Under the pieces are notes generated by a model. That model saw only the letters and a list, made by a program, of their open reading frames with translations. It did no database searches and was not told where the DNA came from. This document shows positions 2,328-42,120 of a stretch of DNA of 53,447 bases, piece by piece. Source of the stretch: an uncultured Gammaproteobacteria bacterium (GTDB lineage: Bacteria; Patescibacteriota; Patescibacteriia; Magasanikbacterales; GWA2-37-8); NCBI GenBank assembly GCA_964363145.1, contig CAYIHE010000001.1:1-53447 (forward strand). The letters are read 5' to 3'. Position numbers and translations under genes: made by a program. Each line of letters starts with the position of its first letter. Position 1 is the first letter of the stretch.

Positions 2328-3845
2328 TTACTTATCAAACTCCTCGCAAGCTGATTTTAATTCCGCTTCTATTTTTTCATCCCATTGGCCTTGAGCAATT
2401 TTGTCCAAAAGCGGACGCTTTGCTTTATTCATAAATTCAGTCAGTGTTTTTTCTGCATTTGGAATATTTTTTACCTCCACATTATCAAAGTATCCATTAT
2501 TTACGGCGTAAATATTTACCACCTGATCTTCCACCGCTACCGGTTGATATTGCGGTTGTTTTAAAAGCTCGGTAATGCGCTGACCGCGTTCAATTTGTTT
2601 TTTTGTTTCCGGATCCAAATCGCTGGCAAATTGAGCAAAGGCTTCCATTTCGCGGAATTGGGCCATAGCCAATTTTAATTTACCGGCCACTTTTTTCATC
2701 GGTTTAATTTGCGCCGCGCCGCCGACGCGGGATACGGAAATACCAACGTTTAACGCCGGACGAATGCCGCGATAAAATAAATCGGTTTCCAAGAAAATTT
2801 GACCGTCGGTAATAGAAATTACATTAGTTGGAATATAAGCGGTAACGTCGGATGCTTGAGTTTCGATAATTGGCAGAGCGGTAATAGAACCTCCACCGGA
2901 TTCTTTGTTGCGGCGGCAAGCGCGTTCCAGCAATCGGGAATGAATATAAAACACATCGCCAGGGTAAGCTTCTCGTCCCGGTGGTCGGCGTAACAATAAA
3001 GAAATTTCGCGGTAAGCCCAAGCTTGCTTGGATAAATCATCGTAAACACAGAGAACGTCTTTGCCTTGATCCATAAAATATTCAGCCATGGCCACGCCAG
3101 AATACGGAGCTATATAGGAAAGCGCGGCCGGTTGGGAAGCCCCAGCTACCACCACGATTGTATAATCCATTGCGCCGGCTTCTTTTAACCGCGCGACAAT
3201 TCTGGCCACTTTTGATTCTTTCTGGCCAATAGCCACATACACACAAATCATATCTTTGCCTTTTTGATTGATGATAGTGTCTATGGCTAAGGCGGTTTTT
3301 CCGGTTTGTCGATCGCCGATAATAAGCTCGCGCTGGCCACGGCCAATTGGTATCATGGCGTCTATGGCTTTAATGCCGGTTTGCAGTGGCTGGCTGACCG
3401 GTTCTCTGGTCATAACACCGGGCGCGATTTTTTCAATCGGATAGAACTTGTTGGTTTTAATGTCTTTGCCGCCATCAATGGCTTGCCCCAACGGGTTTAC
3501 CACTCTTCCAACTAATTCTTCTCCAACCGGCACGGACAAAATTCGGCCGGTTCTTTTTACAGTGTCGCCTTCTTTAATATGTTCATAATCGCCCAAAAGC
3601 ACGCAACCAACTGTTTCTTCTTCCAGGTTAAGGGCTAGACCAAATGTAGTGGCTCCGTCATTCGACGTGGCGCTCGCATCGTTCACAAACTCCAGCATTT
3701 CGCTGGCTTGGCATTTTGTCAAGCCGGAAATACGGGCAATTCCGTCACCGACTTCTATAACTTTGCCGGTTTCTTCTTTGGCCACTTCTTTTTGAAAATG
3801 GGCGATACTTTTTTTAAGTTCTTCTACGATGGAATTGGTGCTCAT
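2328..3845 (-). CDS. atpA: F1 ATP synthase alpha subunit
   Basis: 505 aa. Walker [19 protein letters not shown]. Conserved blocks [27 protein letters not shown] and [14 protein letters not shown]. Confidence 0.97.
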
Positions 3846-5175: not shown

Positions 5176-5276
5176 TGTCATCGCGAGGTCGCTTAAAGCG
5201 GCCGTGGCGATCCCCTTGAATCAAGTCGTACTTAATCCAACGGGATTGCTTCGTCGCTTCACTCCTCGCAATGACA
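5176..5276. repeat. MITE-like palindromic element, family A (diverged left end TGTCATCGCGAGG)
   Basis: Ends CCTCGCAATGACA. Internal GGGATTGCTTCGTCGCTTC as in other A copies. Fills the atpB-atpE spacer. Confidence 0.8.
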
Positions 5277-6121: not shown

Positions 6122-6149
6122 TCCCCGCTTGGGCGGGGTAGGGGTGGGT
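6122..6149. repeat. GC-rich hairpin module C (TCCCCGCTTGGGCGGGGTAGGGGTGGGT)
   Basis: 28/28 identical to 40049-40076, which lies inside a CDS. CCCCGC/GCGGGG hairpin. Confidence 0.85.
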
Positions 6150-6469: not shown

Positions 6470-6895
6470 TCAAGGCAATTTGCTTATAATAGAACGAAAA
6501 AACTCCTTGTCTTTGGGGTTGGTAAGCAAATCAGCCGCTTCACTTTTGTTTACCCATCTGGCTTCAGGGTTGTCCGGATCTATCGGTTTTAACTCGCGCT
6601 GGCTGGTTCTAAACAAAAACATAAAAATTGTCTTGTGTTCGGAAAAGTCATGTCCTCCCTCAATACTGGTTTTATATCTTTGGTAATCGCCTAATTCGGA
6701 AATTAATTCCAACTGATTTACGCCGGATTCTTCATAAATTTCTCTTTTGGCGGCCGCTAATTTCTCTTCTCCGGCCTCAATATGGCCTTTAGGCAAAGAC
6801 CATGCCCGCCCGCGCTGATTTACTATCAGCACTTCGCCGTTTTCATTAATTACCACTCCGCCGGCTGATTCGGTTTGTTTTGTTTCTACACTCAT
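6470..6895 (-). CDS. NUDIX hydrolase
   Basis: 141 aa. Nudix box GHIEAGEEKLAAAKREIYEESGV (GX5EX7REUXEEXGU). Confidence 0.85.
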   Translation of the reverse strand: MSVETKQTESAGGVVINENGEVLIVNQRGRAWSLPKGHIEAGEEKLAAAKREIYEESGVNQLELISELGDYQRYKTSIEGGHDFSEHKTIFMFLFRTSQRELKPIDPDNPEARWVNKSEAADLLTNPKDKEFFRSIISKLP

Positions 6896-7812
6896 AAATT
6901 AAATAGTTTATTGGCATTTTTAGCAGTTATTTCTACAACTTCGTCAAAAGACAGATTTTTTATCTCCGCAATTTTTTTGGCCACTTCTTCCACCATCCAC
7001 GGTTCGCAACGCTGACCACGATAAGCCTGCGGAGCCAGATATGGCGCGTCTGTTTCTATTAACATACGCTCTAACGGACAATTTTTTATAACTTCAAGTA
7101 AATCTAATTGCGGTTGTGGGTCTTTTTTTGGAGGAAAAGTGATGACGCCGGTAAAACCCAAATGTAATCCCAAATCAAGATATTTCTGGGCGTGCGCCCA
7201 ATCAGATGTATAGCAATGCACAACCCCTCTTACTTTTTTTTCTGTCATCCCGAGCGTAGCCGAGGGATCCCTTACACTAGACGAAAGGGATTCCTCCACG
7301 GAGTTTATGCCCCGAGGGGTAGTCGGAATGACAAGCGAACGCAAGAGCTCCACCATTTCATCATGGGCATTACGCACATGAATCACCAGCGGTAAATTTA
7401 ATTCTTGCGCCAATTTGTATTGCGCGATAAAAATTTCTTTTTGTTTTTTAAAGACTTCTTCCTTGCTTACACCATCCGGCTGATGGAAAAAATCCAGCCC
7501 GCACTCGCCGATGGCGATAACTTTTTTGTTTTGCGCCAATTTTTTATAAAATTCATAATCAAAATCTTCGGCGCGTGAATCAAATTTGGCTTCGCTTTCG
7601 TCCACATGCGATTTAAAAAGATGAATCGGGTGGAGGCCGATCGTGGCAAAAATATTATTGTATTTTTCCGCGTATTCAACCGCTCGAACGCTAGTGTCTT
7701 TTTGAGAACCAACCACATTTAAAATTACGCCTTTCTCCCGGCAGCGTTTTATAACATCTTCATAGTCATCTTTGTAGGCGTTGAATTGAATGTGGCAATG
7801 AGTGTCAAACAT
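6892..7812 (-). CDS. tatD: TatD-family metal-dependent hydrolase/DNase carrying an in-frame repeat insertion
   Basis: 306 aa. MFDTHCHIQF, IAIGECGLDF, LPLVIHVRNAHDEM, VVHCYTSDW and IETDAPYL motifs. Overlaps the NUDIX start by 4 nt. Confidence 0.9.
   Translation of the reverse strand: MFDTHCHIQFNAYKDDYEDVIKRCREKGVILNVVGSQKDTSVRAVEYAEKYNNIFATIGLHPIHLFKSHVDESEAKFDSRAEDFDYEFYKKLAQNKKVIAIGECGLDFFHQPDGVSKEEVFKKQKEIFIAQYKLAQELNLPLVIHVRNAHDEMVELLRSLVIPTTPRGINSVEESLSSSVRDPSATLGMTEKKVRGVVHCYTSDWAHAQKYLDLGLHLGFTGVITFPPKKDPQPQLDLLEVIKNCPLERMLIETDAPYLAPQAYRGQRCEPWMVEEVAKKIAEIKNLSFDEVVEITAKNANKLFNL
7243..7333. repeat. Family B element inside the tatD coding sequence
   Basis: TGTCATCCCGAGCGTAGCCGAGGGATCCC...GGAATGACA. 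Read through as VIPTTPRGINSVEESLSSSVRDPSATLGMTEKK. Confidence 0.8.
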
Positions 7813-10773: not shown

Positions 10774-10872
10774 TGTCATTGCGAGGAGCCGTAGCGACGC
10801 GGCAATCCCACTGTTAGTAGTACTAGTATTTTGGGATTGCTTCGTCGTCCGCGAGGACTCCTCGCAATGACA
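10774..10872. repeat. MITE-like palindromic element, family A
   Basis: TGTCATTGCGAGGAGCCGTAGCGACGCGGCAATCCC...GGGATTGCTTCG...CCTCGCAATGACA. Fills the metG-rsmI spacer. Confidence 0.85.
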
Positions 10873-10880
10873 ACCCTTAA

Positions 10881-11570
10881 TTACTTTTGATTTACTACAA
10901 CCACAAACTCCCCTCTTTCATCTTTCATTTGTTCTATAATTTGACTAATATTTCCTCGATAAATAGTCTCAAATTTTTTAGTAAGTTCACGGCAAACTAC
11001 CATTTGTCTTTCGGGATTTAACACTTCCTTTAATTCCTGCAGACATTTTTTTATTCTATGGCCTGATTCGTAAAATACAGTTGTATATTCAGCCGCGGCT
11101 ACTTCTTTAAAAAACTTTTGCCTTTTATTTTTATGGGGAGGAAAACCCATGAAAACGAATTTGTCCGTGGGAAATCCGGAGATGGAAAGGGCGGCGACGG
11201 CGGCGCAGGGGCCGGGGATGGGGATTACCTCGGCAACTCCCCCAACCCCCTCTTGGTAAGAGGGGGACACGATTCGTGAAATCAATATTCCTCCCGGGTC
11301 GCTTATTCCAGGCGTGCCGGCATCTGTGACCAAAGCCAGATTTTTACCTTCTTCTAACAAACCAATAATTTCTTTAATTTTTTTGGCTTCAGAGTGCTGG
11401 TGGTAGCTGATAAGCGGTTTGTTGATTTGATAATGATTGAGCAAATTTTTTGTCACCCGCGTATCTTCGCACAAAATAAAATCAACACTTTTTAATGTGT
11501 CCAGTGCGCGCAAAGTAATATCGCCAAGATTCCCAATCGGGGTGGCGACAATATAAAGTTTACCAAACAT
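10881..11570 (-). CDS. rsmI: 16S rRNA (cytidine1402-2'-O)-methyltransferase
   Basis: Start moved to M19 (MFGKLYIVATPIGNLGDITLRALDTLKSVDFILCEDTR), the canonical RsmI N-terminus. The upstream 18 codons overlap a terminator hairpin. Carries a hairpin insert at 11238-11270. Confidence 0.88.
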   Translation of the reverse strand: MFGKLYIVATPIGNLGDITLRALDTLKSVDFILCEDTRVTKNLLNHYQINKPLISYHQHSEAKKIKEIIGLLEEGKNLALVTDAGTPGISDPGGILISRIVSPSYQEGVGGVAEVIPIPGPCAAVAALSISGFPTDKFVFMGFPPHKNKRQKFFKEVAAAEYTTVFYESGHRIKKCLQELKEVLNPERQMVVCRELTKKFETIYRGNISQIIEQMKDERGEFVVVVNQK

Positions 11571-13488: not shown

Positions 13489-14766
13489 TTATTTTTTATG
13501 ATGATGATAATTAGCGTGTTGTTGTTCAAGTAATTTTACCGGAGAAATTTCGCGCAACTGTTCCACAATATTCGGCAAGCAATTCATTAAATAATCAATA
13601 TCTTTTTTGGTATTGCAATGGCCGAGAGTAAAACGTAAACTGCCGTGTGAATATTCGTAAGGCAAACCCATGGCCGTAAGCACATGCGACGGTTCCAAAG
13701 ATTCGGATGTGCAGGCGGATCCGGTGGAGCACATAATACGGTATTCATCCAAATAAAGCAGGAGCGCCTCCCCTTCTATGTCCATAAAAGTAACATTCAG
13801 ATTATTTACCAATCTTTGCTGACCAATCTCCGGGCCATTCAATTTTATTTTGGAAATATTTTTTTGGATTTTTTCCCATAGATATTTTACTAATTTATTT
13901 ATTCTCTCCGATTCTTTTTCTTTTTCCATTTGCGCCAGCTCAAACGCTTTGGCAAATCCAACAATGCCAGCGATATTTTCCGTGCCGGAACGCAAACGTC
14001 GTTCTTGTCCACCGCCTAAAATTAATGCTTTAATCGGAGTGCCGCGGCGAATGTAAAGCATGCCAACACCCTTTGGACCGTAGATTTTACTGCCATTTAT
14101 GGTCATTAAATCCACATGCAACTTTTCCACGTCCAAATCTAAATATCCAGCGGCCTGGCAGGCATCGGTATGAAAAAAAGGATAAACCGAATTATTTGCT
14201 TTGCGGTATTGTAAAAGTTTGCGCCCGATTTCGGCGATTGGTTCAATGGCGCCCATTTCGTTATTGGCGTACATTATAGAAATTAAAATCGTATCCGGAC
14301 GTATGGCTTTGATAACATCATCGGCATTTACCAATCCTTGTTCATTTATTTTTACATAAGTAATTTCCCAACCTTGCTTTTTCAAATCTTCCAGAGGATT
14401 AAGCACGGCATGATGCTCTGTGGCCAGAGAAATAATATGCTTACCGCGTTTTTCATGAGCGCGAGCGATGCCATAAATTGCCATATTATCCGATTCAGTG
14501 CCGCTACCGGTAAAAATAATATTTTCCGGCAAAGCGTTGATAAGCTTGGCTATTGTGCGGCGGCTGTCATTTAAGGCGCCATTGGCTTTGCGGCCTTCGG
14601 CGTAAAGCGAGGATGGGTTGCCATAAATTTCCGAAAAATACGGCTGCATAGACGTCAAAACGCGCTTGTCCATATAAGTGGTGGCGGCGTGATCAAAATA
14701 AACATTTCTGATTTTTTTTGGTTTGGGCAACATTGATTTAACGAAATCACGTCGCGTAGCGTCCAT
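13489..14766 (-). CDS. nifS: Cysteine desulfurase (NifS/IscS class I)
   Basis: 425 aa. YFDHAATT, HTDACQAAG, NGSKIYGPKGVGMLY (PLP lysine) and active-site STGSACTS. Confidence 0.95.
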   Translation of the reverse strand: MDATRRDFVKSMLPKPKKIRNVYFDHAATTYMDKRVLTSMQPYFSEIYGNPSSLYAEGRKANGALNDSRRTIAKLINALPENIIFTGSGTESDNMAIYGIARAHEKRGKHIISLATEHHAVLNPLEDLKKQGWEITYVKINEQGLVNADDVIKAIRPDTILISIMYANNEMGAIEPIAEIGRKLLQYRKANNSVYPFFHTDACQAAGYLDLDVEKLHVDLMTINGSKIYGPKGVGMLYIRRGTPIKALILGGGQERRLRSGTENIAGIVGFAKAFELAQMEKEKESERINKLVKYLWEKIQKNISKIKLNGPEIGQQRLVNNLNVTFMDIEGEALLLYLDEYRIMCSTGSACTSESLEPSHVLTAMGLPYEYSHGSLRFTLGHCNTKKDIDYLMNCLPNIVEQLREISPVKLLEQQHANYHHHKK

Positions 14767-14784
14767 TGAAACGCGACGCGGTGG

Positions 14785-15769: not shown

Positions 15770-17052
15770 ATTCGAATTGAATTGTTACTAATATAGTATG
15801 AGTTTATGGGAGTTTTGTCAAGAGCGGACAAATCCATGCTGTTTTCAAAAGCTAAAACATCTTTTAAACGCGCTTTTGTGACCGGATGTTTCGCCACAAA
15901 TAAACTGCAGCAATCCTCGTATGGCCGGGCGGAAATATCCAACGTGCCAATGCGGCGCGCGAGGTTTATTATATCTTTTTTATTTGTTCCTATCAAAGGC
16001 GCGAGTTTGAGCATGTCGGTGGCCGAGTAGATCGCCGTCATGTTTTCCAAAGTTTGCGAAGCCACCTGTCCCAAGCTATCGCCGGTAGTTAGCGCCAAAT
16101 AATTATTTTGGCGCGCGATATTTTCAGAAATTTTATAAAAAATACGGCGAATGCTTATCATGCGATATTTTGCCGGCACTTTCATTACAACCTGCCTTTG
16201 CAGTTCGGCAAATGGCACAATAAATAATTTTATTTCCGGCTGATAATTTGACAAAACTTTTGCCAGATCAAAAATTTTCTCGCTAACTTCATCGGTAACT
16301 TTAGTTTGATTTTGGAAATGCACCAACCCGATTTCCGCGCCACGGCACATCATTTTGTAGGCCGCCACCGGACTGTCTATTCCGCCGGACAATAGCGCCA
16401 AAACTTTACCCGAACTGCCTGTCGGCAATCCGCCGGCGCCGTCGGTGGTGTTGCCATAAATACAAGCTTCATCTTTGCCAACGGAAATATGGATATTCAG
16501 ATCAGGATTATTTAAAGATACCTGCCAGTTATATTTTACGCGCGTGTACTCCCCTATTTCTTTGGCGATTTCTGCCGATGAAAGCGGAAAATTTTTAAAA
16601 GAACGTTCCGCGGAGATGCGGAAATTCGTCTTTTTGTAATTCTGAGCCCATCCGACTTCACTCATTGTCATCCCGAGCGAGCTCGCCGCGGCGAGCGACG
16701 AGGGATCTCTGTCCCACTCGTCGCGAGACAACCGGACAGAGATTCCTCCTTCGTTGTCGGAATGACAAGTGGCGGATCGGGATGACAATTGGACAATACT
16801 ATCCACTCCTTTTTTAATATCTTCAATCGTTGATTTTGTTTTTACAGCCTCTGCGTAATTGGCAAAGCCCGGAATAAGAGCTAACTGGCGCAATTGTTCT
16901 TTTTTAATATCTTCCAACCACAAACCACCTTCTACTCTGGCGACACGGATGCCGGTCAACAATCTTTCAAAATTATTTTTAAGCTGACGATAAAAAATGG
17001 GCTGGTTGGAGCCCTTTAAAAAAATTTCGTCGATGTGAATAATTACATTCAT
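15763..17052 (-). CDS. thiI: tRNA 4-thiouridine synthase ThiI carrying an in-frame repeat insertion
   Basis: 429 aa. PP-loop LLSGGIDSPVAAYKM and THUMP-like N-terminus. Overlaps the exonuclease gene by 7 nt. Confidence 0.85.
   Translation of the reverse strand: MNVIIHIDEIFLKGSNQPIFYRQLKNNFERLLTGIRVARVEGGLWLEDIKKEQLRQLALIPGFANYAEAVKTKSTIEDIKKGVDSIVQLSSRSATCHSDNEGGISVRLSRDEWDRDPSSLAAASSLGMTMSEVGWAQNYKKTNFRISAERSFKNFPLSSAEIAKEIGEYTRVKYNWQVSLNNPDLNIHISVGKDEACIYGNTTDGAGGLPTGSSGKVLALLSGGIDSPVAAYKMMCRGAEIGLVHFQNQTKVTDEVSEKIFDLAKVLSNYQPEIKLFIVPFAELQRQVVMKVPAKYRMISIRRIFYKISENIARQNNYLALTTGDSLGQVASQTLENMTAIYSATDMLKLAPLIGTNKKDIINLARRIGTLDISARPYEDCCSLFVAKHPVTKARLKDVLAFENSMDLSALDKTPINSYYISNNSIRIC
16666..16787. 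repeat. Family B element with duplicated right terminus, inside thiI
   Basis: TGTCATCCCGAGCGAGC...GGACAGAGATTCCTCC...CGGAATGACA (to 16767), then a second CGGGATGACA (16778-16787). Confidence 0.8.
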
Positions 17053-19826: not shown

Positions 19827-20984
19827 TTAGGAAACGGGCGATTTACTTTCCAAATTTCTTAATTGTCCGCAAGCCGCGGCAATGTCTTGACCTTGAGAGT
19901 ATCGGATAGTGGAAATAAATCCGGCGTTCATTAACGTTTCGTGCCAATGCGCAATATTTTCTTTGTCAGAGCCGACCAACCCACCCCCGCCCGCTTCGCT
20001 CGGCGAAGCCGAGCGGGCAGGCCTACCCACAATCGCCTCCCGCAGCGAGCGGGATCCGCGATCCTCGAGGATCGGGACAAGCAGGGATTCAGACGATATA
20101 TTATTATACGGAATTAAATTTATTTTTATTTTTCCTAATTTTGACGCCAGTGTTATCAGCGCCTTTAAATCTTTAGGCCCGTCATTAATCCCGCCAAGCA
20201 TTATATACTCCAACCCGATAAAATGCGCGCGGCTAGGAAAAGCGCGGTGATATTTTTTTGCCCAGCCCACCAGATAATCTAAAAATCCCGGCTGATGCGA
20301 AGGCATAATAGCGGCGCGAGTGGTTTCTATGGCGCTGTGCAAAGACAATGCAAAACGCACCGGAGGAAAATCTTTGTCTTCTACCAGCCTGTCCATGGCG
20401 GCCGGAATACCGCAGGTGGACATGGTAATTTTACTTGGGCCGATGTTGGTATATTTTAAAATAATATTTAAAGCGGTTTTACAATTTTCATAATTCAACA
20501 GTGGTTCACCCTGGCCCATTACTACCATATTATCTATTTCTCCGCCATTTTTTTCATTTAAATATCGGGACCAGAAACGATACTGATCCACAATTTCCTC
20601 AACAGTCAAATTCCGGGAAAATCCGGCTTTTCCTGTGGCGCAAAAAGAACATTTCATACCGCAACCAACTTGTGAAGAAATACAAATTGTATAACGCGGT
20701 TTATCACTATTTACTTTCAGCGACCTGCGGCCCATTAAAACCGCTTCAATCAATTGTCCGTCTTCCAATTTTAATAAAGCTTTTTGCGTGTCATCAATTT
20801 TGCTTTTTTGCAAAGTGTGTAATTTTACCGAAAGCCAAGGCTTATCTGTTAATTTTTCGCGCAAATCTTTTGGCAGGGTGGTTATTTCTTCGTAACTATT
20901 TGTGTTTACATCAAACCAGGCGCGGAACACCTGGTCCTGCCTAAATTTCTTTTCGGTTGATAAAATTTGGAATAAATCTATCAT
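19827..20984 (-). CDS. rlmN: 23S rRNA/tRNA (adenine-C2)-methyltransferase RlmN carrying an in-frame repeat insertion
   Basis: 385 aa. Radical SAM CISSQVGCGMKCSFCATG and C-terminal DIAAACGQL. Confidence 0.9.
   Translation of the reverse strand: MIDLFQILSTEKKFRQDQVFRAWFDVNTNSYEEITTLPKDLREKLTDKPWLSVKLHTLQKSKIDDTQKALLKLEDGQLIEAVLMGRRSLKVNSDKPRYTICISSQVGCGMKCSFCATGKAGFSRNLTVEEIVDQYRFWSRYLNEKNGGEIDNMVVMGQGEPLLNYENCKTALNIILKYTNIGPSKITMSTCGIPAAMDRLVEDKDFPPVRFALSLHSAIETTRAAIMPSHQPGFLDYLVGWAKKYHRAFPSRAHFIGLEYIMLGGINDGPKDLKALITLASKLGKIKINLIPYNNISSESLLVPILEDRGSRSLREAIVGRPARSASPSEAGGGGLVGSDKENIAHWHETLMNAGFISTIRYSQGQDIAAACGQLRNLESKSPVS
19978..20080. repeat. Composite of hairpin modules F and E inside rlmN
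   Basis: CCCGCCCGCTTCGCTCGGC (19986-20004) equals 37338-37356. CCCGCAGCGAGCGGGATCCGCGATCCTCGAGGATCGGGACAA (20040-20080) matches 2230-2270 and 51105-51145. Confidence 0.8.
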
Positions 20985-23209
20985 GTTTTAGCAGCTGCCT
21001 TCAAAATCTTTTCCTTAATATCGTTTGGAGTCATTCCGGCCACCTCATATACCTCGGCCGCATTGCCGGATTTTAGATAGTGAGTTATGCCGATGGATTT
21101 ATTGGCGTAATTTGGGCCTAGCATAAACGGATACAAAAATCCTGGCCAGCCGTTGTGGAGAGTGACTACGAGCGGACGTTCTTCCTCCGGCAGAATTAAC
21201 TGGGCGCTTGCCGGATTAGTTTGCCGCAATTCTTCAAATAATTCCGGAGATGTGACGGCGATGATTTTTACATTGAAACCTTGGGCTTCCAGTTCTGGCA
21301 AAATCTCTAGGGTGTTTAATAGGACTTGCATGCCGCAGATTGCCAATACCAATTTTTTATTTTTATGAATAGATCCCTCGTCGGCTACGGCCTCTGTCGG
21401 GATGACAGTGTGAGAAAATTGTTTGTAGACGTAGGCGCCGTTTGTGGCTTCGATCGCCGGTGGAACTTCGGCGCGGTTAATCGTCGGCTGTTCTGTCCTG
21501 TAAACGGACAGAACAACCGGCTCGCCTTTTTCTAAAGCATAAAATAACATTTCTATGGTTTCGTTGGCGTCTGTTGGTTTGTAAACTTTTATTCCAGGCA
21601 AAGCGTTGTAGAGCGACATCCAGTACATTCCCTGATGCGTTGGGCCGTCCTCGCCTGTTTCCGGGCCATCGTGGGCGGCCAAACAAATAAAAAATCCTTT
21701 TGTTTCGGGGTTGAGCTGATTTCCGATAACTGCCAGACGAATAGCGTTGGCCATCATGTTGGTGAAAACCGCGAACGTTCCAAAAACCGAAACGGGTTTG
21801 TATCCCCCGGGCAAAATATCTTGAGTTAAACCAGCGCCCATCATGGCCATATTTTGTTCGGCAATTCCATAACGAATACCGCGCCCCAATGGATTTTTTC
21901 TACTAATGAGTCCGTAGACTTCTTCCGCGGAATTTGTAAAAACAGATTTGGATAAATCCCCTGCTCCGGCATAAAAAAACGCGGTCTGTTTCATGTACCA
22001 TGCCATCCATGCCTGCGCGGCCGTGCGGGTAGAAACTTTTTTTCCTTCCGCAAAAATTAATTCCGGCGGTAAAACTTTTGGACGTTTTATAGCCAGTGGA
22101 TTTACCAGTGGACGGCCGTCCAGAGCTTTCACCATTTGTTTAACTAAATCTGATTCATGCAAAATTTTCTTAGCTCCAACTTCTAATCGTTCTAAAATAT
22201 ATTTTTCATCATCTGAAGTAACTTGCGCCAAAACAGTTTGAATATCGGCCATTACTTTTCCCTGTTCGCCGGGAATATCAAATCCGAGTTTTTTCATTAT
22301 AGAAACATACTCGTCGTGCTTGACTGGAGACCCATGCGAGGCCGCGGTGTTTTCTTTAGAGCCGTAACCTTTGCCTTTTAATGTATGACAAATTACAACC
22401 GTGGGCGAGCCGTTGGCAAAACCTTTGGCCGCCATTTGATACGCGTAAACCATTTCCAAAATATTGTGTCCGTTTGTTTCTATAACATTCCAGCCTAACC
22501 CAAGCCAATGATTTATATAAGGAGACGAAACCACCTCTTCTATTTCGGCGTCAATTCCAAAATGATTATAATCCAGACTGACAATTAAATTTTTTAATCC
22601 GTTGGTGGCGATAATATTGCGTGCTTCGTATGTCATCCCCTCTTCGCTTTCCGCATCACCCATAAAAACAAAAGTTTTGGTATCCAGCCCGCAAGATTGA
22701 TGAACCATGGCCATACCACCGGCCGCGCATAATCCGTGCCCCGATGGCCCGGTAGTAAAATCCGAATATGGATACTGCGCCTCGGCATGACCCTGTGGGC
22801 CATCGGCATGACGGAAACGCAACAAATCTTCCGGAAATACCGCTTTTGTTACCGCAGAGGAAAATTGCCGTCCAGCGCGGCGTAAAATTTCATAATACAA
22901 AGCTTGTCCGGCAAAAAGTAATGGCGTGCAATGCCCGGCGCTCCACACCACCCTGTCTCTGCCCGAATTTTTGGGGTTGGTAGGATCAAAAGCCATTACC
23001 CCGCCCAAGGTCATTGCCAAAAATTGTTCTACTTTGCCGCTACTGCCGCCCGGGTGCCCAGATTGCCCCGCTTCCACAGCCGCAAAAATCAGGCCGCGCA
23101 GAATTTTGGCGAGCTTGTCTAGTCGTTTTACGTCTATGCCTTTTATGTTTGGTATTTTTTTACCTTGGATGTTTATGTATTCTGGCTGGTTGGATGGTTT
23201 GTTGGGCAT
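20981..23209 (-). CDS. tkt: Transketolase (long form)
   Basis: 742 aa. SGHPGGS, GHCTP, GPSGHGL and GEDGPTHQ motifs. Overlaps the rlmN start by 4 nt. Confidence 0.9.
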   Translation of the reverse strand: MPNKPSNQPEYINIQGKKIPNIKGIDVKRLDKLAKILRGLIFAAVEAGQSGHPGGSSGKVEQFLAMTLGGVMAFDPTNPKNSGRDRVVWSAGHCTPLLFAGQALYYEILRRAGRQFSSAVTKAVFPEDLLRFRHADGPQGHAEAQYPYSDFTTGPSGHGLCAAGGMAMVHQSCGLDTKTFVFMGDAESEEGMTYEARNIIATNGLKNLIVSLDYNHFGIDAEIEEVVSSPYINHWLGLGWNVIETNGHNILEMVYAYQMAAKGFANGSPTVVICHTLKGKGYGSKENTAASHGSPVKHDEYVSIMKKLGFDIPGEQGKVMADIQTVLAQVTSDDEKYILERLEVGAKKILHESDLVKQMVKALDGRPLVNPLAIKRPKVLPPELIFAEGKKVSTRTAAQAWMAWYMKQTAFFYAGAGDLSKSVFTNSAEEVYGLISRKNPLGRGIRYGIAEQNMAMMGAGLTQDILPGGYKPVSVFGTFAVFTNMMANAIRLAVIGNQLNPETKGFFICLAAHDGPETGEDGPTHQGMYWMSLYNALPGIKVYKPTDANETIEMLFYALEKGEPVVLSVYRTEQPTINRAEVPPAIEATNGAYVYKQFSHTVIPTEAVADEGSIHKNKKLVLAICGMQVLLNTLEILPELEAQGFNVKIIAVTSPELFEELRQTNPASAQLILPEEERPLVVTLHNGWPGFLYPFMLGPNYANKSIGITHYLKSGNAAEVYEVAGMTPNDIKEKILKAAAKT
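21371..21407. repeat. Half family-B element inside tkt
   Basis: AGATCCCTCGTCGGCTACGGCCTCTGTCGGGATGACA, read through as VIPTEAVADEGSI. Confidence 0.6.
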
Positions 23210-29577: not shown

Positions 29578-30840
29578 ATGCCTAATTCAAATAGCCTGAT
29601 TAAGGCGGTAGAAAAGCGGCTTGCCAAGCGCCGTTTGTTTTATGTCTGCCGGGACATAGAAAGGGCGGCTGGCCTGCGCGCAAAAAATTATTTTGTGATT
29701 GCGAATCATACAAACTACGCCGCCAAGCTGGCCCGCCAAGACTCTAATATTATTCTAATAAAAGAAAAAAATCAACTGGACACGCAAGAATTATTAAAAC
29801 ATCCGCGAGTAGAAAAGATAATCCGCAAAAACGATTTTGTTTTAGTGTTTAAAAATAATTCAATTATTGAAGATGCCTGCCAAAAACACGGCTGGCATTT
29901 GTTAAACCCCGGCGCCAAATTGGCGGATAAAATAGAAAGCAAAATCTCGCAAATTGAGTGGCTGGGCCATTTGGCCAAATATCTGCCAAAACATCGCGTG
30001 GATATTTGCCAAAATATCAAATGGCCCGGCAAACCTTTTATCTTACAATACAACCACGCGCATACCGGTAGCGGCACTTTATTTATAAACACCAAAAAAA
30101 GATTAAATGAACTGGCAATAAAATTTCCGAAACGACCTGTAAGAATTTCCCAATATATAGAAGGACCGGCATTTACCAACAACAATGTGGTCTGGGACGA
30201 TAAGATTTTAATGGGAAACATAAATTATCAAATCACGGGATTGGCGCCTTTTACCGACAATAAATTCGCCACCATTGGCAATGATTGGATGCTGCCGAGT
30301 AAAGTTCTAAGCACTAAGCAGATTAAGCAATATAAGCAGATTGTAACCGAAATCGGAAGGAAATTAAGCAAAGACGGCTGGAAAGGATTATTCGGAATTG
30401 ATATTATAATGGATGAAAAAAATGGACGGCTTTACTTGCTGGAAATAAACGCCCGCCAGCCGGCTTCTACGACGTTTGAGTCACAATTGCAGAAGTCTAA
30501 AGTCCAAAGTCTAAAGCATGCCCCGTACCGAACAGAAGGTTCTGGTTCGAGGTCAAAAGTCTCCACCTTTGAAGCCCATCTGGCCAGTCTGTTAGACTTA
30601 ACAAATAAGGAATATAAACTAATTTCCGTACACGATGGCGCGCAGATTATTCAACGAGTAACGAAGAAAAAAATAAAAATACCCAAAATAAAAAATAAAT
30701 CAATCCTAAATATTATCGCTTACAACAACACAGCTATCGGCGCCGACCTGACAAGAATTCAGTGTAGCCATGGCATAATGCAAACCGCAAATACGTTTAA
30801 TAAAATAGGCAAAGAAATCCGCTCTGCGCTAAAAAAATAA
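29578..30840 (+). CDS. ATP-grasp family ligase (substrate unknown) carrying an in-frame repeat insertion
   Basis: Start taken at MPNSNSL. GLFGIDIIMDEKNGRLYLLEINARQPAS is an ATP-grasp C-terminal motif. Divergent from murB. Confidence 0.7.
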   Translation: MPNSNSLIKAVEKRLAKRRLFYVCRDIERAAGLRAKNYFVIANHTNYAAKLARQDSNIILIKEKNQLDTQELLKHPRVEKIIRKNDFVLVFKNNSIIEDACQKHGWHLLNPGAKLADKIESKISQIEWLGHLAKYLPKHRVDICQNIKWPGKPFILQYNHAHTGSGTLFINTKKRLNELAIKFPKRPVRISQYIEGPAFTNNNVVWDDKILMGNINYQITGLAPFTDNKFATIGNDWMLPSKVLSTKQIKQYKQIVTEIGRKLSKDGWKGLFGIDIIMDEKNGRLYLLEINARQPASTTFESQLQKSKVQSLKHAPYRTEGSGSRSKVSTFEAHLASLLDLTNKEYKLISVHDGAQIIQRVTKKKIKIPKIKNKSILNIIAYNNTAIGADLTRIQCSHGIMQTANTFNKIGKEIRSALKK

Positions 30841-32765: not shown

Positions 32766-32843
32766 TGTCATTCTGAGCGTAGCGAAGAATCTCTGTCCGT
32801 TTTGCGATTGAGACAGAGATCCTTCACTTCGTTCAGGATGACA
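32766..32843. repeat. MITE-like palindromic element, family B
   Basis: TGTCATTCTGAGCGTAGCGAAGAATCTCTGTCC...GACAGAGATCCTTCACTTCGTTCAGGATGACA. Fills the mraY / ATE-like spacer. Confidence 0.85.
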
Positions 32844-32852: not shown

Positions 32853-33593
32853 ATGTACCTAACATGGGACAAAAAAACAATCACTAATTTTGATGATAAG
32901 CCGATTGAAGAAATGTACGACGGCGGTTTTGTTTTTACGCGAATTGGCAAAGGTGTGATGAATAAAACCAGAAGTTTGCGGATTAATCTGGAAAAATTTG
33001 GACTATCTTCGGAAAACCGCCGCGTTTTAAAAAAAACCGAAGATTTGGTTTTATCCTCACACACAATCCCCTACCCAGAATACAACTGGACGATACATAA
33101 AATGGGAAAAGAATTTTACGAAAAAAAATTCGGTGACGGAGTGTTTAGCGCGCAGAAAATAAAGGAATTGATTACAAATAAAGATAAAGGTAATTTTAAT
33201 AAACTGTTTGTTTATGCGCTGTCATTGCGAGGAGCCGCAAGCGACGCGGCAATCCCAACGGAAGCACTACCAAACAATGGGATTGCTTCGCTTCCTAAAG
33301 AAGCTCGCAATGACAACATTGCCTATTGCATCGCCTTGGAAACAAAAAATATTTTGCACTACTGCTATCCGTTCTATCACCTACAACCTACAACCTACAA
33401 CCTACAACCTAACATTGGCATGGGCATGATGTTAAAAGCGATTGTCTGGGCAAAAGAAAACGGCAAACAATATATTTATTTAGGATCATTCCAACGACCG
33501 GCTGATGTTTACAAATTGCAATTTTCCGGATTGGAATGGTTTGATGGAAAAAATTGGCAAAGTGATTTGGATGAATTAAAAAAGGCGTTATGA
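32853..33593 (+). CDS. Arginyl/leucyl-tRNA--protein transferase (ATE/Bpt)-like protein carrying a full family-A element in-frame
   Basis: Start taken at MYLTWD, after the repeat. RSLRINLEKFGLSSENRRVLKK and C-terminal QYIYLGSFQRPADVYKLQFSGLEWFDGKNW resemble the ATE_N/ATE_C blocks. Similarity judged by eye only. Confidence 0.45.
   Translation: MYLTWDKKTITNFDDKPIEEMYDGGFVFTRIGKGVMNKTRSLRINLEKFGLSSENRRVLKKTEDLVLSSHTIPYPEYNWTIHKMGKEFYEKKFGDGVFSAQKIKELITNKDKGNFNKLFVYALSLRGAASDAAIPTEALPNNGIASLPKEARNDNIAYCIALETKNILHYCYPFYHLQPTTYNLQPNIGMGMMLKAIVWAKENGKQYIYLGSFQRPADVYKLQFSGLEWFDGKNWQSDLDELKKAL
33220..33315. repeat. Family A element inside the ATE-like CDS
   Basis: TGTCATTGCGAGGAGCCGCAAGCGACGCGGCAATCCC...GGGATTGCTTCG...CTCGCAATGACA, read as LSLRGAASDAAIPTEALPNNGIASLPKEARNDN. 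Confidence 0.85.
33381..33413. repeat. Heptanucleotide tandem repeat (CTACAAC x4 plus a partial unit) inside a CDS
   Basis: Perfect units at 33381-87, 33388-94, 33395-401 and 33402-08. Confidence 0.9.
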
Positions 33594-35074
33594 ATAAACA
33601 TATTCACTTTATCGGTATCTGTGGCGTAGCCATGAGCGCGCTGGCTGTGGCATTTCATAAAGAAGGCTGGGAAGTTTCCGGCAGTGATGTGGGGTTTTTT
33701 CCTCCTATTTCCGATTATTTAAAAGATAATAATATTTCTTTTTACCCGGGATGGCACCCGGAAAAAATGACGGCAAAAGGCGACCCGGATATTGTGGTGG
33801 TAGGAAATGTGGCCGGATCCGGTAATGCGGAATTTATTTATACCAGAAAACATAATTTGAATTATAAATCATACCCGGAAGTAATTGCCGAGCATATTGT
33901 GCAGTCAAAATCACTGGTATGCGCGGGCACTTACGGCAAAACTTCCACTGCCGCTTTACTGACTTTAATTTTAAAAAATGCCGATCTTAATCCAACTTAC
34001 ATGTTTGGAGGATTAAGCGCGAATTTGCCTATTAGCGCGAAAATTAAACTGGGCTTGCCCGGCGTAGCTGTAGCGAAGCCCGGGTGGAGTGTCTTGGAAG
34101 GTGACGAATACAAAACCGCGCGCTGGGACAGCCGGCCAAAATTTAAACTCTACTCCCCCACTCATTTGCTTTTAACTTCGGTTTCCTGGGATCACGCCGA
34201 TATTTATCCCACAGAAGAAACGTATTTTAACGCTTTTAAAGATTTAACAGCCATGCTTCCGGCTCATGGGTTAATTGTGGCTTGCGCGGACGCGCCAAAC
34301 ATGAATAAAATTCTTTCATCCAATACCAACGGATGCAAAGTCATAACTTACGGAAAAAATCAGACAGCGGATTATTATTATTTTGACGTAAAACAGACAA
34401 AAGACGGCGTAAATTTTAAAATACAAAACAAGCGCCGAGTTTCAATGGACGTTACTCGGCATGATTCCGCTGAATCAAATAAAACATACGAACTGGCTTC
34501 GCCTGTATTGGGCGAACACATGGCCGAAAATATTTGCGGCTGTTTTGCCATGGCCAGCGAGCTTGAAATTGAAAACAGTGTTATTTTAAAAACTATTGCC
34601 GAATTTAAAGGCATAAAAAGAAGATTGGAAAAAAGATTTGATGGAGACATTATTGTTTATGATGATTTGGGACACTCGCCGGCCAAAGCCGCGGCCACAC
34701 TGCGAACCTTGCGTGCTATCTACCCGCATAACAAAATAGTTGCCGTGTTTGAACCAAACACAGGCAATCGCAAATCGCAGTCAATCCCCGGATATGATAA
34801 TGCTTTTTCAAACGCAGACGAAGTGATAATCCCAGCGCTCACAAGAATAAAAATAAACCCAAAGGATATTGATCCGCCATTTGACGGAGAAAGATTGACT
34901 GAGATAGCTTCTAAAACCAATCCCAAAGTTATGTATATTAAAGATGACGATAAATTAGTTGAATATATAAAAAATAATTTAAAAGAAAAAGACGTGGTCG
35001 TCTTTCTTGGTTCGCATGGTTTTAGAGGAATGATAGAAAAGCTTATTTACCTTCATCAGCCACTTCGCACGTAA
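33590..35074 (+). CDS. Mur ligase, Mpl/MurC-like
   Basis: 494 aa. IHFIGICGVAMSALAVAFHKEGWEVSGSD, P-loop GTYGKTSTAALL, EGDEY. Overlaps the upstream gene by 4 nt. Confidence 0.8.
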   Translation: MNKHIHFIGICGVAMSALAVAFHKEGWEVSGSDVGFFPPISDYLKDNNISFYPGWHPEKMTAKGDPDIVVVGNVAGSGNAEFIYTRKHNLNYKSYPEVIAEHIVQSKSLVCAGTYGKTSTAALLTLILKNADLNPTYMFGGLSANLPISAKIKLGLPGVAVAKPGWSVLEGDEYKTARWDSRPKFKLYSPTHLLLTSVSWDHADIYPTEETYFNAFKDLTAMLPAHGLIVACADAPNMNKILSSNTNGCKVITYGKNQTADYYYFDVKQTKDGVNFKIQNKRRVSMDVTRHDSAESNKTYELASPVLGEHMAENICGCFAMASELEIENSVILKTIAEFKGIKRRLEKRFDGDIIVYDDLGHSPAKAAATLRTLRAIYPHNKIVAVFEPNTGNRKSQSIPGYDNAFSNADEVIIPALTRIKINPKDIDPPFDGERLTEIASKTNPKVMYIKDDDKLVEYIKNNLKEKDVVVFLGSHGFRGMIEKLIYLHQPLRT

Positions 35075-35258: not shown

Positions 35259-36188
35259 ATGGCAATTACTAAAATAACCCCGCAACCGCAAGCGAAAAAA
35301 TTGGCAAAAAAAATTGGCTTAACCGCGGCTTTGTATTTGAAGCGCGAGGATCTGCATCCGCACGGATCGCACAAAGGCCGGTCTATTCCGCCGATGGTTG
35401 ACCATTATGTCAACGAAGGCGCTAGTAATTTTTGTATTTCATCATCGGGAAATGCAGCCTTGGCCGCTATTTATGCTATTCAAAAACATAAATCTTGCGC
35501 TTTACGCATCTTTGTCGGCAAACATATTCAACAGGATAAGTTGGAACGGTTACGACAAGTAATTTACAAAAATCAGAATATAACTATTGAGCAAGTGGAT
35601 GCTCCAAAACGAATGGCGTTTCAAATGGATAAAAATGGCTCTGTGCCGATTTTGCCGCCGCAAAATCGAGCATCCGCGATTTCGCGCCAAAGCGAAATCG
35701 GGACAAAAAATCTACGCCAGTCAACCGATGACACTGCGCTTGTTGGCTACCAAACGCTGGCCGATGAGCTGGCGGAAATAAAAAATCTTGCCGCTGTTTT
35801 TATTCCAACATCCAGCGGCACCACGGCGCAAGGTCTATATAATGGCTTTCAGAAACACAACATCAATCCGCAAATTCATATTATACAAACCCCTTTTTGC
35901 CACCCAATGGTTGCATCCCCGGCTCCAATCGAACCTTCGGTGGCAAGCGCGATTGTGGATAAGGTGGGCTATCGCAAAGAAGCGGTCCAAAAAGCCATAC
36001 GAGACAGTGGGGGCAAAGGATGGATAGCAACTGATAATGATATCGCGGAAACAAAATGCCAAATTAAAGAAACTGAAAATCTGGACATATCCGCCAACAG
36101 CGCCCTGTCGGTAGCCGGATTAAAACTTGCATTAAAAAATAATTGGCATTTTAGCGGGCCAGTGGTTTGTATTCTTACCGGACGTTAA
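35259..36188 (+). CDS. Fold-type II PLP-dependent enzyme (Thr synthase/Cys synthase superfamily) carrying a hairpin-module insert
   Basis: 309 aa. LKREDLHPHGSHKGR (PLP-lysine block) and SSSGNAALAAIYA. Insert at 35646-35706. Confidence 0.65.
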   Translation: MAITKITPQPQAKKLAKKIGLTAALYLKREDLHPHGSHKGRSIPPMVDHYVNEGASNFCISSSGNAALAAIYAIQKHKSCALRIFVGKHIQQDKLERLRQVIYKNQNITIEQVDAPKRMAFQMDKNGSVPILPPQNRASAISRQSEIGTKNLRQSTDDTALVGYQTLADELAEIKNLAAVFIPTSSGTTAQGLYNGFQKHNINPQIHIIQTPFCHPMVASPAPIEPSVASAIVDKVGYRKEAVQKAIRDSGGKGWIATDNDIAETKCQIKETENLDISANSALSVAGLKLALKNNWHFSGPVVCILTGR

Positions 36189-38228
36189 TTATTCTCCGTT
36201 CATCAAAATAATCTCGTCCACGCCGTCAAAATTAACATCGGCCGCGCCAACACTGGTTTGGCTGGTATTAAAACCGGCGGTAATTTTAAATTGAGACAAT
36301 AATTTTCCCGCCAGACTGTAAGTTTTTATCTGTTTGGTTTTACCAAAATCCAAAGCCACGATTATTTCCGGCGCGCCATCGCCGTTTATATCTCCGGAAG
36401 CCAGGCTAAAGCTTCCTTTTAATTTTTTAGTGTCTACGAAAAATCTCCGGCTGATTTTTGACAGTATGTTGTTATAAACAATAACCTCCGGAAATTTTCC
36501 GCCGCCGGCGCCGACAATAATTTTACTGTTGTTTCCCGCGCCGGCTATGGCCACCGCCAACCCTGTTTTATATGTTTTTCCCAACGGAAAAATATTTTCT
36601 TTTACTATTCCGCCGTGATAATTATAAATATTTATTTGCCCTCCTTTATTTTGAGAAGTGATTGTGGAGTTTTCCTGTGAGTCGGATAATCTTCCGACCG
36701 TTAAACGCACTTCACCGGTATAATTCCTGCCAAACGGCCAATCGCTAAGCCAAGTACCGCCACTACTATTAAATATTCCCAATTTTTGGCTGGTGGCGAT
36801 AATTTTTTCTTCGGTGCCACTGCCGTCCAGATCGCCGTGATATATTTTTGCTCCTCCGGGTACGCCATTTTCATAAACAAACAAACCGTTGCGGACGCGA
36901 TTTCCGTTTTTATCAAAAAATCTAATAAAATTGCCGTTGGCAAAGACAATGTTTTTGAGAGTCTGAAAAGTCCGCAACATTATTAGGCCGTCTTTGGCCG
37001 GTAAATTAACCTGACTAACTATGGAGCCGTCATTGACGGCGGAATCTTGCGTGCCGATTATTTTTTCATATTCGCCGCCTAGATCAATATCTTGCGGCAA
37101 AGAAGTGGCGTTGGTCAAAGCAATGCCATTTTCGTATTCCCTGCGCCAAACGTCTTCTTCGAATTTTTGCTTATTGTTTAAAGACAGAGCCGCCCCCAGC
37201 GGCTTGCCTAATTCAATGTTATATTCATCATACCACCAAGTTTGCGCGTGCGCCGTATCGCCAAAGTCAAAAGCATAATGCCCGTCCAACAGCAAAGCGC
37301 TGGCCAAACCAAAACGAAATTCCTTAAAATTATTTTGCCCGCCCGCTTCGCTCGGCTCAGAAGAGCGGGCGGGCGTTCCTAAATTCGCCGTATTAGCATT
37401 AATAATATTTAGGCGCGGTAAAGGCATGCCAAGCTGATTGCCGGCATAAACATTCATAGAATCTTTCCAGCTCAAAGGTGGAAAATTTTCCAGCATAATG
37501 CCGTTTAAGTCATCTTTATAAACATCGCTGGTGGCATTGCCAATCAAAACAAATTTGTTGCTGGTTAATTTTCTGGTCTCTTGGTAAATAGAGCGCGTGC
37601 CTTCGCGCCAATGCGCGTCTATATCGCTATCTTTTTGTCCATCTTTATTTAAATCTACAGTGTCGCCTGCCAGCCATTTTATGTCTTTCCATGCGTTGTC
37701 ATAAAATACTCCGTCCCAAACACCGGTGGACAAAATTTCTTGCGCCACGAATTTCGCGATGTATTTATTTAATTTGACGCCATTTATTTCCGGCGCGTTA
37801 TCGGCCACATTTAACATCCAAGTGCCGGGCCAAAAAGTGATTTTGTTATTTTGTGCGTCAGTTAAATACCATCGTTCGTCAATTCCAGCGGCCAATTTTT
37901 TTCGCATAACGCTAGTCCCAACAGCCGCGTCTTTTTTTATTTCTTGCGGAGTAATATAGGCGAGCAAAATTATATTGGGATTAAGCTGTTTGATTTTTTT
38001 CAGCGCGCTTAAACTGTTTATTTGCGTTTCCATGTCCAGAATCAACAAATCCCACTTGGCTAACTCAATAATTTTATTATCTAAGATTTCCCAATTCAAA
38101 TAATAGTTGGCGCGTTTTGGCGAAATGCGCGCGGCCGAAGATCGGCGCGGAAACAAAAGAACGGCATAAAAAACCGCGGTAAAAACCAGCGCGGCCAAAA
38201 TTATTTTTTTATTATTTTTTTTCCGCAT
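36189..38228 (-). CDS. Secreted glycoside-hydrolase-like (GHL15-type TIM barrel) protein with C-terminal FG-GAP repeats
   Basis: 679 aa. N-terminal signal/TM. ANYYLNWEI...WDLLILDME. C-terminal GDLDGSGTEEKII, GDINGDGAPEIIV and ADVNFDGVDEIIL. Confidence 0.6.
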   Translation of the reverse strand: MRKKNNKKIILAALVFTAVFYAVLLFPRRSSAARISPKRANYYLNWEILDNKIIELAKWDLLILDMETQINSLSALKKIKQLNPNIILLAYITPQEIKKDAAVGTSVMRKKLAAGIDERWYLTDAQNNKITFWPGTWMLNVADNAPEINGVKLNKYIAKFVAQEILSTGVWDGVFYDNAWKDIKWLAGDTVDLNKDGQKDSDIDAHWREGTRSIYQETRKLTSNKFVLIGNATSDVYKDDLNGIMLENFPPLSWKDSMNVYAGNQLGMPLPRLNIINANTANLGTPARSSEPSEAGGQNNFKEFRFGLASALLLDGHYAFDFGDTAHAQTWWYDEYNIELGKPLGAALSLNNKQKFEEDVWRREYENGIALTNATSLPQDIDLGGEYEKIIGTQDSAVNDGSIVSQVNLPAKDGLIMLRTFQTLKNIVFANGNFIRFFDKNGNRVRNGLFVYENGVPGGAKIYHGDLDGSGTEEKIIATSQKLGIFNSSGGTWLSDWPFGRNYTGEVRLTVGRLSDSQENSTITSQNKGGQINIYNYHGGIVKENIFPLGKTYKTGLAVAIAGAGNNSKIIVGAGGGKFPEVIVYNNILSKISRRFFVDTKKLKGSFSLASGDINGDGAPEIIVALDFGKTKQIKTYSLAGKLLSQFKITAGFNTSQTSVGAADVNFDGVDEIILMNGE

Positions 38229-40822: not shown

Positions 40823-41158
40823 AGCCAGACGGATTTTCCTTATAGGAAAATCTCGTCGCTAAAAACAAAAAACCACCCAGAGAGAGTCACCTAACGAAGT
40901 AATAAATTACTTAGTCGGGTAATCGGGTGGTATTTTTGTTAGGCAGATAAATCTGCCCATTTCCGCTCACTTTATAAATGAACGCAAATGGACAGGTCTG
41001 CCAGCGAAAGCCCCAAAGGGGTCCTTCAATTCTAGTGATTATATTTTTGTACTTTCGTAGCTTTCGTATTTCGTACATAATCATTAAAATTGAAGGGGGG
41101 AAGAGAGTTGCTTAAACAACCGCTATCTCTACTCTCTTCCCCCACCAGGATACTACTC

Positions 41159-41953: not shown

Positions 41954-42046
41954 TGTCTCATCTCCTCTGGCCGCATCCGTGCGACCATATCTCGAACGTG
42001 ATCTCCACTCCAACCAACGGCATCATTGCCATGGTTGTAGTTTTTT

Positions 42047-42120
42047 TGTCATCCTGAACATAGTGAAGGATCTCTGTCCGTTTGATTGGACAAAATTTCT
42101 TCGCTTTGTTCAGAATGACA
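42047..42120. repeat. Family B element inside the high-GC island
   Basis: TGTCATCCTGAACATAGTGAAGGATCTCTGTCC...TTCGCTTTGTTCAGAATGACA. AT-rich like the host. Confidence 0.85.

Follow-up and report, generated by a model that had tools for sequence, protein, structure and literature searches.

In-frame palindromic repeat inserts in core genes of a Patescibacteria contig, probably retained by selection in permissive protein loops

How can a bacterial core enzyme carry, in the middle of its coding sequence, the translated copy of a palindromic DNA repeat? The question is raised by tatD on contig CAYIHE010000001.1, a stretch of 53,447 nucleotides with 42% GC that was analyzed in full and is referred to here as the window, and whose proteins have their top matches in Patescibacteria, in Magasanikbacteria-like metagenome-assembled genomes (MAGs). 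An initial annotation had proposed that GC-rich palindromic modules are read through in tatD and in nine further genes of the window without creating any stop or frameshift. We compared these segments gene by gene with five syntenic relatives (L124 to L128), with solved structures found by a PDB sequence search, and with sets of 120 TatD orthologues from Patescibacteria and 121 orthologues of an arginyltransferase-like (ATE-like) protein. The explanation that we consider probable is that palindromic repeats spread, enter genes, and survive there only when they lie in frame in permissive loops, as a result of selection.

The host gene tatD (6892-7812, minus strand) encodes a full-length protein of 306 amino acids, which matches the whole Pfam profile TatD_DNase (positions 1-253) with an E-value of 4e-75. 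Inside this gene, a 91-nucleotide hairpin element of 56% GC (7243-7333, minus strand) with TGTCAT...ATGACA ends (TGTCATCCCGA...TCGGAATGACA) occupies amino acids 161-190, and its predicted RNA fold reached -38.7 kcal/mol, with a z-score of -3.3 compared to shuffled sequences. Its translation, VIPTTPRGINSVEESLSSSVRDPSATLGMT, is flanked by the blocks VIHVRNAHDEM and VVHCYTSDW, and thus both the position and the read-through described initially were reproduced. The expectation that TatD relatives have only a short connector at this point was also borne out, since the alignment to solved TatD structures split into two blocks that left about 33 query residues (158-192) unmatched. The insert was missing from 67 of the 120 orthologues, and the loop between AHEEMxELL and GVVHCYT measured 8 residues in 67 of them and 12-49 in another 43, where the long loops were made of several unrelated repeat peptides (VIPT..LGMT/ARND, VIAS..PRND, CHPE..QNDK, VIARS.. 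and SPPFQGG..).

The AF2 model of TatD (predicted local distance difference test, pLDDT, of 87.9) superposed on solved TatD structures with template-modelling (TM) scores of 0.85-0.90, and in this model residues 162-195 form a coil, mostly with pLDDT below 50, between the helix 150-161 and the strand 196-199. The helix-to-strand loops of a TIM barrel lie on the face opposite the catalytic face, and by this textbook topology the TatD insert would point away from the active site. In the model of the ATE-like protein (pLDDT 86), residues 128-148 fell below 50 between the strands 117-123 and 155-163. Both predicted models place the insert in a low-confidence loop outside an intact fold, compatible with a position at the protein surface.

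All ten listed open reading frames (ORFs) proved to be continuous, and each segment was in frame, free of stops and extra compared to closer or more distant homologues, so that the orthologue alignments backed lineage specificity in every one of the ten genes. Among the large elements, thiI carries one of 122 nucleotides (16666-16787, minus strand; z = -5.0) whose 3' end is duplicated. The insert proper comprises amino acids 88-133 (16654-16791), adds 46 residues compared to relatives and about 47 compared to PDB structures, is missing from L127 and L128, and falls between the ferredoxin-like and THUMP domains defined by Pfam. The ATE-like gene contains a 96-nucleotide element of the TGTCATTGCGAGGAGCC subfamily (33220-33315, plus strand; z = -6.2) that adds about 28 residues and is 95% identical over 38 nucleotides to the intergenic stretch 10774-10810; the basal loop of the protein has 8 residues in 62 of the 121 orthologues and at least 12 in 50. 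In tkt, a half element (TGTCATCCCGAC...; 21371-21407, minus strand) adds 16 residues compared to PDB structures in the linker before the C-terminal domain, between Pfam domains.

Other segments are built of smaller GC-rich hairpin modules, some of them common to several loci. That of rlmN (19977-20090, minus strand; amino acids 299-336) was identified by module matches and alignments as a composite whose modules match 2229-2270 (88%), 51104-51145 (91%) and 37338-37356 (19 of 19 positions), with a gain of 31 residues compared to L128 and about 35 compared to RlmN structures in the PDB. A 36-nucleotide GC hairpin in the GHL15/FG-GAP gene (37340-37375, minus strand; z = -3.2), which has a 19-mer in common with the rlmN insert, corresponds to a gap in L124 and to 12 extra residues compared to three relatives. 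In rsmI, a 33-nucleotide GC-rich hairpin (11238-11270, minus strand; amino acids 119-129) gives a net gain of 6 to 8 residues, about 8 compared to PDB structures and 6 compared to relatives. Solved structures were too distant for placing the inserts of the pyridoxal-phosphate (PLP)-dependent (PALP) gene and of the ATP-grasp gene, and the syntenic relatives were used instead. The former is a 60-nucleotide double hairpin (35646-35705, plus strand; z = -5.1) that faces an exact 60-nucleotide gap in L124, even though the two genes share 93% DNA identity. The latter had been described as a span of 84 nucleotides (30492-30575), of which only the central 36 (30516-30551, plus strand; z = -1.2) are an insertion, with a clean gap in L124 and 12 extra residues compared to three relatives. 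The 28-nucleotide repeat of the O-antigen ligase-like Wzy_C gene (40049-40076, plus strand) is 100% identical to its intergenic twin at 6122-6149 (repeat family D11), and the alignment of relatives gave a net gain of only 9 nucleotides, or 3 residues. The extra loops therefore span 3-46 residues rather than the 10-40 first estimated, and 'housekeeping' is a loose description of the hosts in the case of Wzy, GHL15 and ATP-grasp, which are envelope genes.

Beyond the ten listed genes, three further inserts were found in a Mur ligase gene, which has two, and in atpA. The former contains 21 extra nucleotides (34055-34075, plus strand), seen as a gap in L124 and as 7 additional residues compared to three relatives, and a 45-nucleotide insert of the RRVSMDxTRHD family (34432-34476, plus strand), which is also a gap in L124 and has an inverted copy at 14733-14779; this peptide family recurs in the Wzy protein of L124 and in the ATE orthologue P0133. 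In atpA, 30 extra nucleotides (3651-3680, minus strand) add 10 residues compared to L127 and L128, and since the DNA (GATGCGAGCG..TCGAATGACG) resembles element ends, they are possibly a decayed element remnant.

That the segments are ancestral, conserved parts of their proteins has nothing in its favor beyond their presence in some relatives. They are missing from the solved structures and from most close orthologues, a contig 99% identical does not have the TatD insert, and the orthologue alignments refute this origin.

The repeat nature of the large copies was evident from their ends. The end motif GTCATYNYGA occurred 25 times in the window compared to 1.16 expected, a count that no shuffled sequence reached, and the ends pair into 11 full elements of 74-133 nucleotides with complementary terminal inverted repeats (TGTCATYSYGA/TCRSRATGACA). 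Three of the 11 are genic (tatD, thiI and the ATE-like gene) and eight are intergenic, in addition to the half copy in tkt. Composite or nested elements are present at 2200-2326, at 51075-51207 and within thiI. A scan for the small modules by GC islands was too noisy and was not used. No Rfam model matched at gathering thresholds, and at an E-value threshold only chance matches to miRNA hairpin models appeared, among them a sub-threshold match of the human mir-4679 model to 43849-43918 and 32768-32841 (34 bits compared to a gathering threshold of 88), which we attribute to chance because long perfect hairpins resemble one another. Searches of the open-access literature by DNA and peptide strings, and by Candidate Phyla Radiation (CPR) combined with miniature inverted-repeat transposable element (MITE) or palindrome, returned nothing relevant on the element.

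The lack of stops and frameshifts, which held for all ten ORFs with their stop-free inserts in multiples of three, had been taken to imply either strong filtering for translatable copies or an insertion process that preserves the reading frame. Only filtering found support. Frames were open in 8 of 48 cases in intergenic copies and in 9 of 18 in the three genic full copies (Fisher p = 0.01). The intergenic copies of the window measure 86, 127, 101, 99, 78, 74, 74 and 133 nucleotides, element lengths modulo three were uniform in other loci and genomes (48/41/49), and the 5' end is read in all three frames across genes (VIP.., CHP.. and SLR..). Moreover, full copies are depleted in coding DNA, since 3 of 11 are genic in a window whose sequence is 86% coding (p = 1.6e-5); if an open frame and a length divisible by three were the sole requirements, roughly 25% of copies would be genic, and the 27% observed come close to this in a comparison that is rough and based on small numbers. 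An insertion mechanism that itself keeps the frame would explain why every surviving genic copy is in frame, but stops in most frames of most intergenic copies, varied and uniformly distributed lengths, the use of all three 5' frames and the strong coding depletion do not support it, and we regard it as highly improbable. The elements have no intrinsic frame preservation, and filtering of translatable copies by selection is supported by these data.

The same observations bear on whether the segments reach the protein. Removal by RNA processing, or ribosomal bypassing as in the 'byp' elements of Magnusiomyces mitochondria, would leave them absent from the product, and stable hairpins and GC-rich mobile palindromes in an AT-rich genome fit such a process; bypass elements reportedly arose in just this setting (Lang et al. 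2014, PNAS). If the segments were skipped or removed, nothing would hold their frames open, but all inserts are stop-free multiples of three, and between the TatD inserts of the window and L002 a 10-nucleotide and a 1-nucleotide indel shift and then restore the frame, so that the frameshift is compensated. Removal or bypassing is thus very unlikely, and the inserts are probably translated, as argued indirectly from their reading frames.

As anticipated by the initial annotation, presence/absence polymorphism was found among relatives. Two contigs from one aquifer well, L001 without and L002 with the TatD insert, share 99.3% identity along the 3.5 kb upstream, and, apart from a 27-amino-acid gap, their TatD proteins agree at 269 of 279 positions. 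One TatD insert allele is common to L002 and to L003, an independent assembly. In six genes compared between the window and L124, all ten indels of at least 6 nucleotides were multiples of three, for which the chance is (1/3)^10 = 1.7e-5. These results also bear on the idea that the insert-bearing genes are pseudogenes or that the inserts are assembly artefacts. The window is a metagenome-assembled contig, and repeats common to several organisms could mislead assemblers; nevertheless, the ORFs are full length with invariant catalytic residues and conserved sequence on both sides of the inserts, synteny is conserved in five relatives, the same insert allele was recovered in independent assemblies, and the indels keep to multiples of three. 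There is, in our judgement, very little probability left for pseudogenes or artefacts.

Insertions were strongly concentrated within the proteins. In TatD, 37 of the 42 internal insertions fall in a single loop, and in the ATE-like protein 47 of the 52 do so. Different repeat families occupy the same site in TatD, the ATE-like protein, Tkt and RsmI when the window is compared with relatives. At the tkt site, for example, the repeat of L124 is another one (SPLGRGRGGLA), and L128 has another repeat peptide (VIASEAKQS..PRND) at the rsmI site. The VIP-type TatD alleles of the window, L127 and L002 have a common junction between loop codons 3 and 4, although they may go back to one event, and the CHP-type inserts end 1 nucleotide away from it, as judged from peptides only. 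Two rarer sites were also observed, one in TatD after core position 148 (PKPEALLRFGAG in 4 of 5 cases, GNAEVEIS in the fifth) and one in the ATE-like protein after core position 97 (PALNRPAGSGLM in 4 of 4).

Such hot spots could mean that insertion is target-specific and guided by certain sequences or structures of the DNA, which might be hairpin copies already present, while selection only removes the copies that break the frame. The share of insertions in one loop, the meeting of several families at one site, the identical VIP-type junction (with the proviso of a single event) and the composite or nested elements of 2200-2326, 51075-51207 and thiI are what such targeting predicts. Against it, the sites have neither a common flanking sequence nor a target-site duplication, some families are displaced by 1-2 codons with loop residues lost, and empty sites do not form hairpins. 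A preference for A/T runs, hinted at by the empty sites, was rejected, as 3 of 18 sites compared to a 9% background was not significant (p = 0.22). We therefore consider target-specific insertion a possible but distinctly less likely explanation. A stronger version appears unlikely. In it, a site-directed superfamily common to bacterial phyla and viral contigs would give core enzymes of Patescibacteria new disordered loops, time and again at identical positions, and its insertion and near-precise loss would act as a standing generator of protein-length variation rather than as accidental junk, with targets chosen by some feature of DNA or RNA and by means of a new or unassigned enzyme.

The preferred explanation, insertion followed by selection, can be set out as follows. 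The elements would be small non-autonomous palindromic repeats similar to MITEs or to repetitive extragenic palindromic (REP) sequences, with the large copies forming a TGTCAT...ATGACA superfamily and the small ones consisting of GC-rich hairpin modules. Copies would spread through the genome and land in genes and spacers alike, blind to the reading frame, and those adding a stop, a frameshift or damage to the fold of a needed protein would be lost. The surviving genic copies would be those that are stop-free, a multiple of three in length and located in loops or interdomain linkers, and they would be translated as disordered, hydrophilic extra loops. Inserts would be gained and lost on short time scales, in part by recombination between alleles, and the same permissive loop would be re-invaded by other repeat families in other lineages.

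Several observations weigh against this explanation. The concentration of insertions is far beyond what random insertion and loop tolerance would produce, and neither a target motif nor a common flanking sequence was found at the insertion sites. Selection would account for the hot spots if permissive sites are few, or else there could be a target preference that is as yet unrecognised, for instance for earlier copies. No target-site duplication was found, as no direct repeat borders the 11 copies of the window or 18 copies from CPR, and no transposase or autonomous parent element was found in the fetched loci. Mobility by a transposase-like enzyme is accordingly suggested by the distribution of the copies only. 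Within the window, no second copy of the rsmI, ATP-grasp or PLP segment reached significance, and the four shortest segments (rsmI, tkt, the ATP-grasp core and Wzy) fold no better than shuffled sequences. Finally, L001 and L002 do not differ by a clean cut-and-paste event, since a patch of substitutions extends about 10 nucleotides upstream and 45 nucleotides downstream of the insert. Alleles may thus have been exchanged by recombination, or the event may be an older one.

The tatD substitutions between L001 (3464-3610) and L002 cluster right around the insert site, which hints at a short imported recombinant tract or at error-prone repair during insertion or excision. As for a parent element, end pairs 0.5-3.5 kb apart in the fetched loci seem to belong to separate short copies with ordinary genes in between (by annotation in L127 and the window, by spacing and ORF length in the rest), and no autonomous element was recognized between paired ends in these loci.

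In order to see how widely the element occurs, the two-ended pattern was searched with one genome kept per species, and at least 120 stretches (L004-L123) contained it. The matches listed come from Bacteroidota, including cultured members with complete genomes, Acidobacteriota, Chloroflexota, Firmicutes, Cyanobacteria, Proteobacteria, Planctomycetota, Gemmatimonadota and Patescibacteria. The arm beside each end is conserved (by eye roughly TGTCATYCYGAGCGnAGCGAAGGATC, with the outer 25 nucleotides conserved across phyla), which argues that the cross-phylum matches are not due to chance. These genomes are for the most part not CPR, and among the matches listed no more than 9 of 133 copies (about 7%) lie in long open frames; some of the 9 come from genomes of high GC content, in which spurious long frames arise often. 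The superfamily is also present on IMG/VR viral contigs among the matches listed (L248 onward), where tandem arrays of 3-5 elements (L304 8545-8970, L313 14-472 and L289 1726-2065), spaced roughly 10-30 nucleotides apart and about 10 in L304, look like bacterial interspersed mosaic elements (BIMEs). Of 97 copies that could be tested in a metagenome scan for the tatD-type core, 12 lie within long open frames, and the in-frame hosts on low-GC metagenome contigs include RecJ, UvrC, LeuRS, an FkbM methyltransferase, a MiaB-like enzyme, ComEC and RsmB/F. In L142 (open frame at about 2012-2106), a LeuRS-like protein contains the repeat together with a whole Ser_hydrolase/alpha-beta hydrolase domain inside the synthetase.

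Regarding the copies outside the ten genes, the spacers of the ATP synthase operon hold three full elements, one downstream of atpG (1106-1191), a composite between atpG and atpA (2200-2326) whose nested modules also occur in rlmN, and one next to atpB (5176-5276); the first two have 0 of 6 frames open. These elements are presumably transcribed together with the operon genes, and they may influence how stable the mRNA is or how it is processed. Another intergenic element (10774-10872) lies between metG and rsmI, and a composite one (51075-51207) is 90% identical to 2199-2307. The intergenic element at 32766-32843 ends 9 nucleotides before the start codon of the ATE-like gene, whose ribosome-binding region would fall in the hairpin of this element; the true start is the ATG at 32853, and a longer ORF starting with TTG at 32802 begins inside the element and is spurious.

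Two more copies with end motifs and shared repeat sequence are associated with a high-GC island, one inside it (42047-42120) and one at its right edge (43847-43920). This block (41000-43950) has 57-62% GC in the 42%-GC contig and contains three minus-strand genes (41159-42013, 42303-42998 and 43227-43784) with GC at third codon positions (GC3) of 0.76-0.84 and no Pfam match, whose products look like secreted proteins rich in Pro, Thr and Asp. Orthologues at the same place in L124, with amino acid identities of 62-64% for the first two genes and 35% for the third, ruled out that the 41-44 kb block is an assembly chimera or the cargo of a composite transposon. Two gene models deserve mention as well. 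The inverted RRVSMDxTRHD-family copy at 14733-14779 spans the start of a cysteine-desulfurase-like ORF (13489-14766) of 425 amino acids, about 13-15 longer than its counterparts of 410 and 412 in relatives, and the N-terminus of this product may be repeat-derived or mis-called. In L124 (13222-16263), the radical-SAM and GHL15/FG-GAP proteins are called as one product of 1013 amino acids, whereas the window has an ORF for each (38242-39312 and 36189-38228, respectively).

The closest known system is that of the Rickettsia palindromic elements (RPEs), which are inserted in frame in many metabolic genes in a manner compatible with the protein fold, each RPE encoding a conserved peptide (Ogata et al. 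2000, Science 290:347, as reviewed in PMC10969869). Both systems consist of short palindromes that are in frame in many unrelated metabolic or housekeeping genes, read through and fold-compatible, with several families per genome, intergenic copies and bacterial hosts with small genomes. They differ in that the hosts are Patescibacteria here and Alphaproteobacteria there, and in that TGTCAT...ATGACA ends, lengths of 74-133 nucleotides and additional modules of 21-60 nucleotides distinguish the present elements from RPEs of about 150 bp, to which they appear unrelated in sequence, as judged from descriptions and from the lack of an Rfam or literature match. Here all three frames are used and several peptides result, compared to the one conserved peptide that the review describes for each RPE; the superfamily spans many phyla and viral contigs; and about a third or more of the orthologues have an insert in one loop, from different families. 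We know of no such recurrence of different families in one loop for RPEs.

Further resemblances were noted with REP sequences, BIMEs and REP doublets forming hairpins (REPINs), which are associated with the Y1 transposase RAYT. These are also abundant short imperfect palindromes, mostly intergenic and often within operons, that lack an evident target-site duplication and occur in tandem clusters (here in L304 and L313). REPs are typically species-specific and rarely intragenic, whereas here the outer 25 nucleotides are conserved across phyla and in-frame genic copies are common. MITEs such as ERIC, BOX, Correia and those of Anabaena are non-autonomous hairpin repeats with intragenic in-frame copies as well, some of which are known to be fused in frame to ORFs of the host (PMC10969869). 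Classical MITEs differ in having terminal repeats that match a known insertion sequence and target-site duplications, neither of which was found in the loci compared here. The GC clusters of yeast mitochondria (var1) and the byp elements are likewise GC-rich, polymorphic palindromic mobile modules in coding regions of an AT-rich genome. Byps break the reading frame and are skipped by the ribosome, whereas every copy described here is in frame and stop-free, which points to ordinary translation rather than to byp-like skipping. No CPR report of such inserts was found in the open-access literature searched, and the phenomenon is that of the Rickettsia RPEs in a new host with a different element.

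For the tiny genomes of CPR bacteria, commonly called streamlined, the finding means that a sizeable share of core enzymes has loops derived from selfish DNA that differ between near-identical strains. The repeats likely seed many spurious 'hypothetical proteins' during annotation, as inferred from their open frames, and insert-rich columns affect CPR orthologue alignment and phylogenomics as well as structure prediction, while presence/absence of inserts provides markers for strain tracking within one aquifer. What was a case from the single genus Rickettsia widens into a broader phenomenon and offers a natural experiment on which protein loops tolerate insertions of 10-45 residues. It also makes one ask by what means a single hairpin family has come to span so many phyla as well as phage-like contigs.

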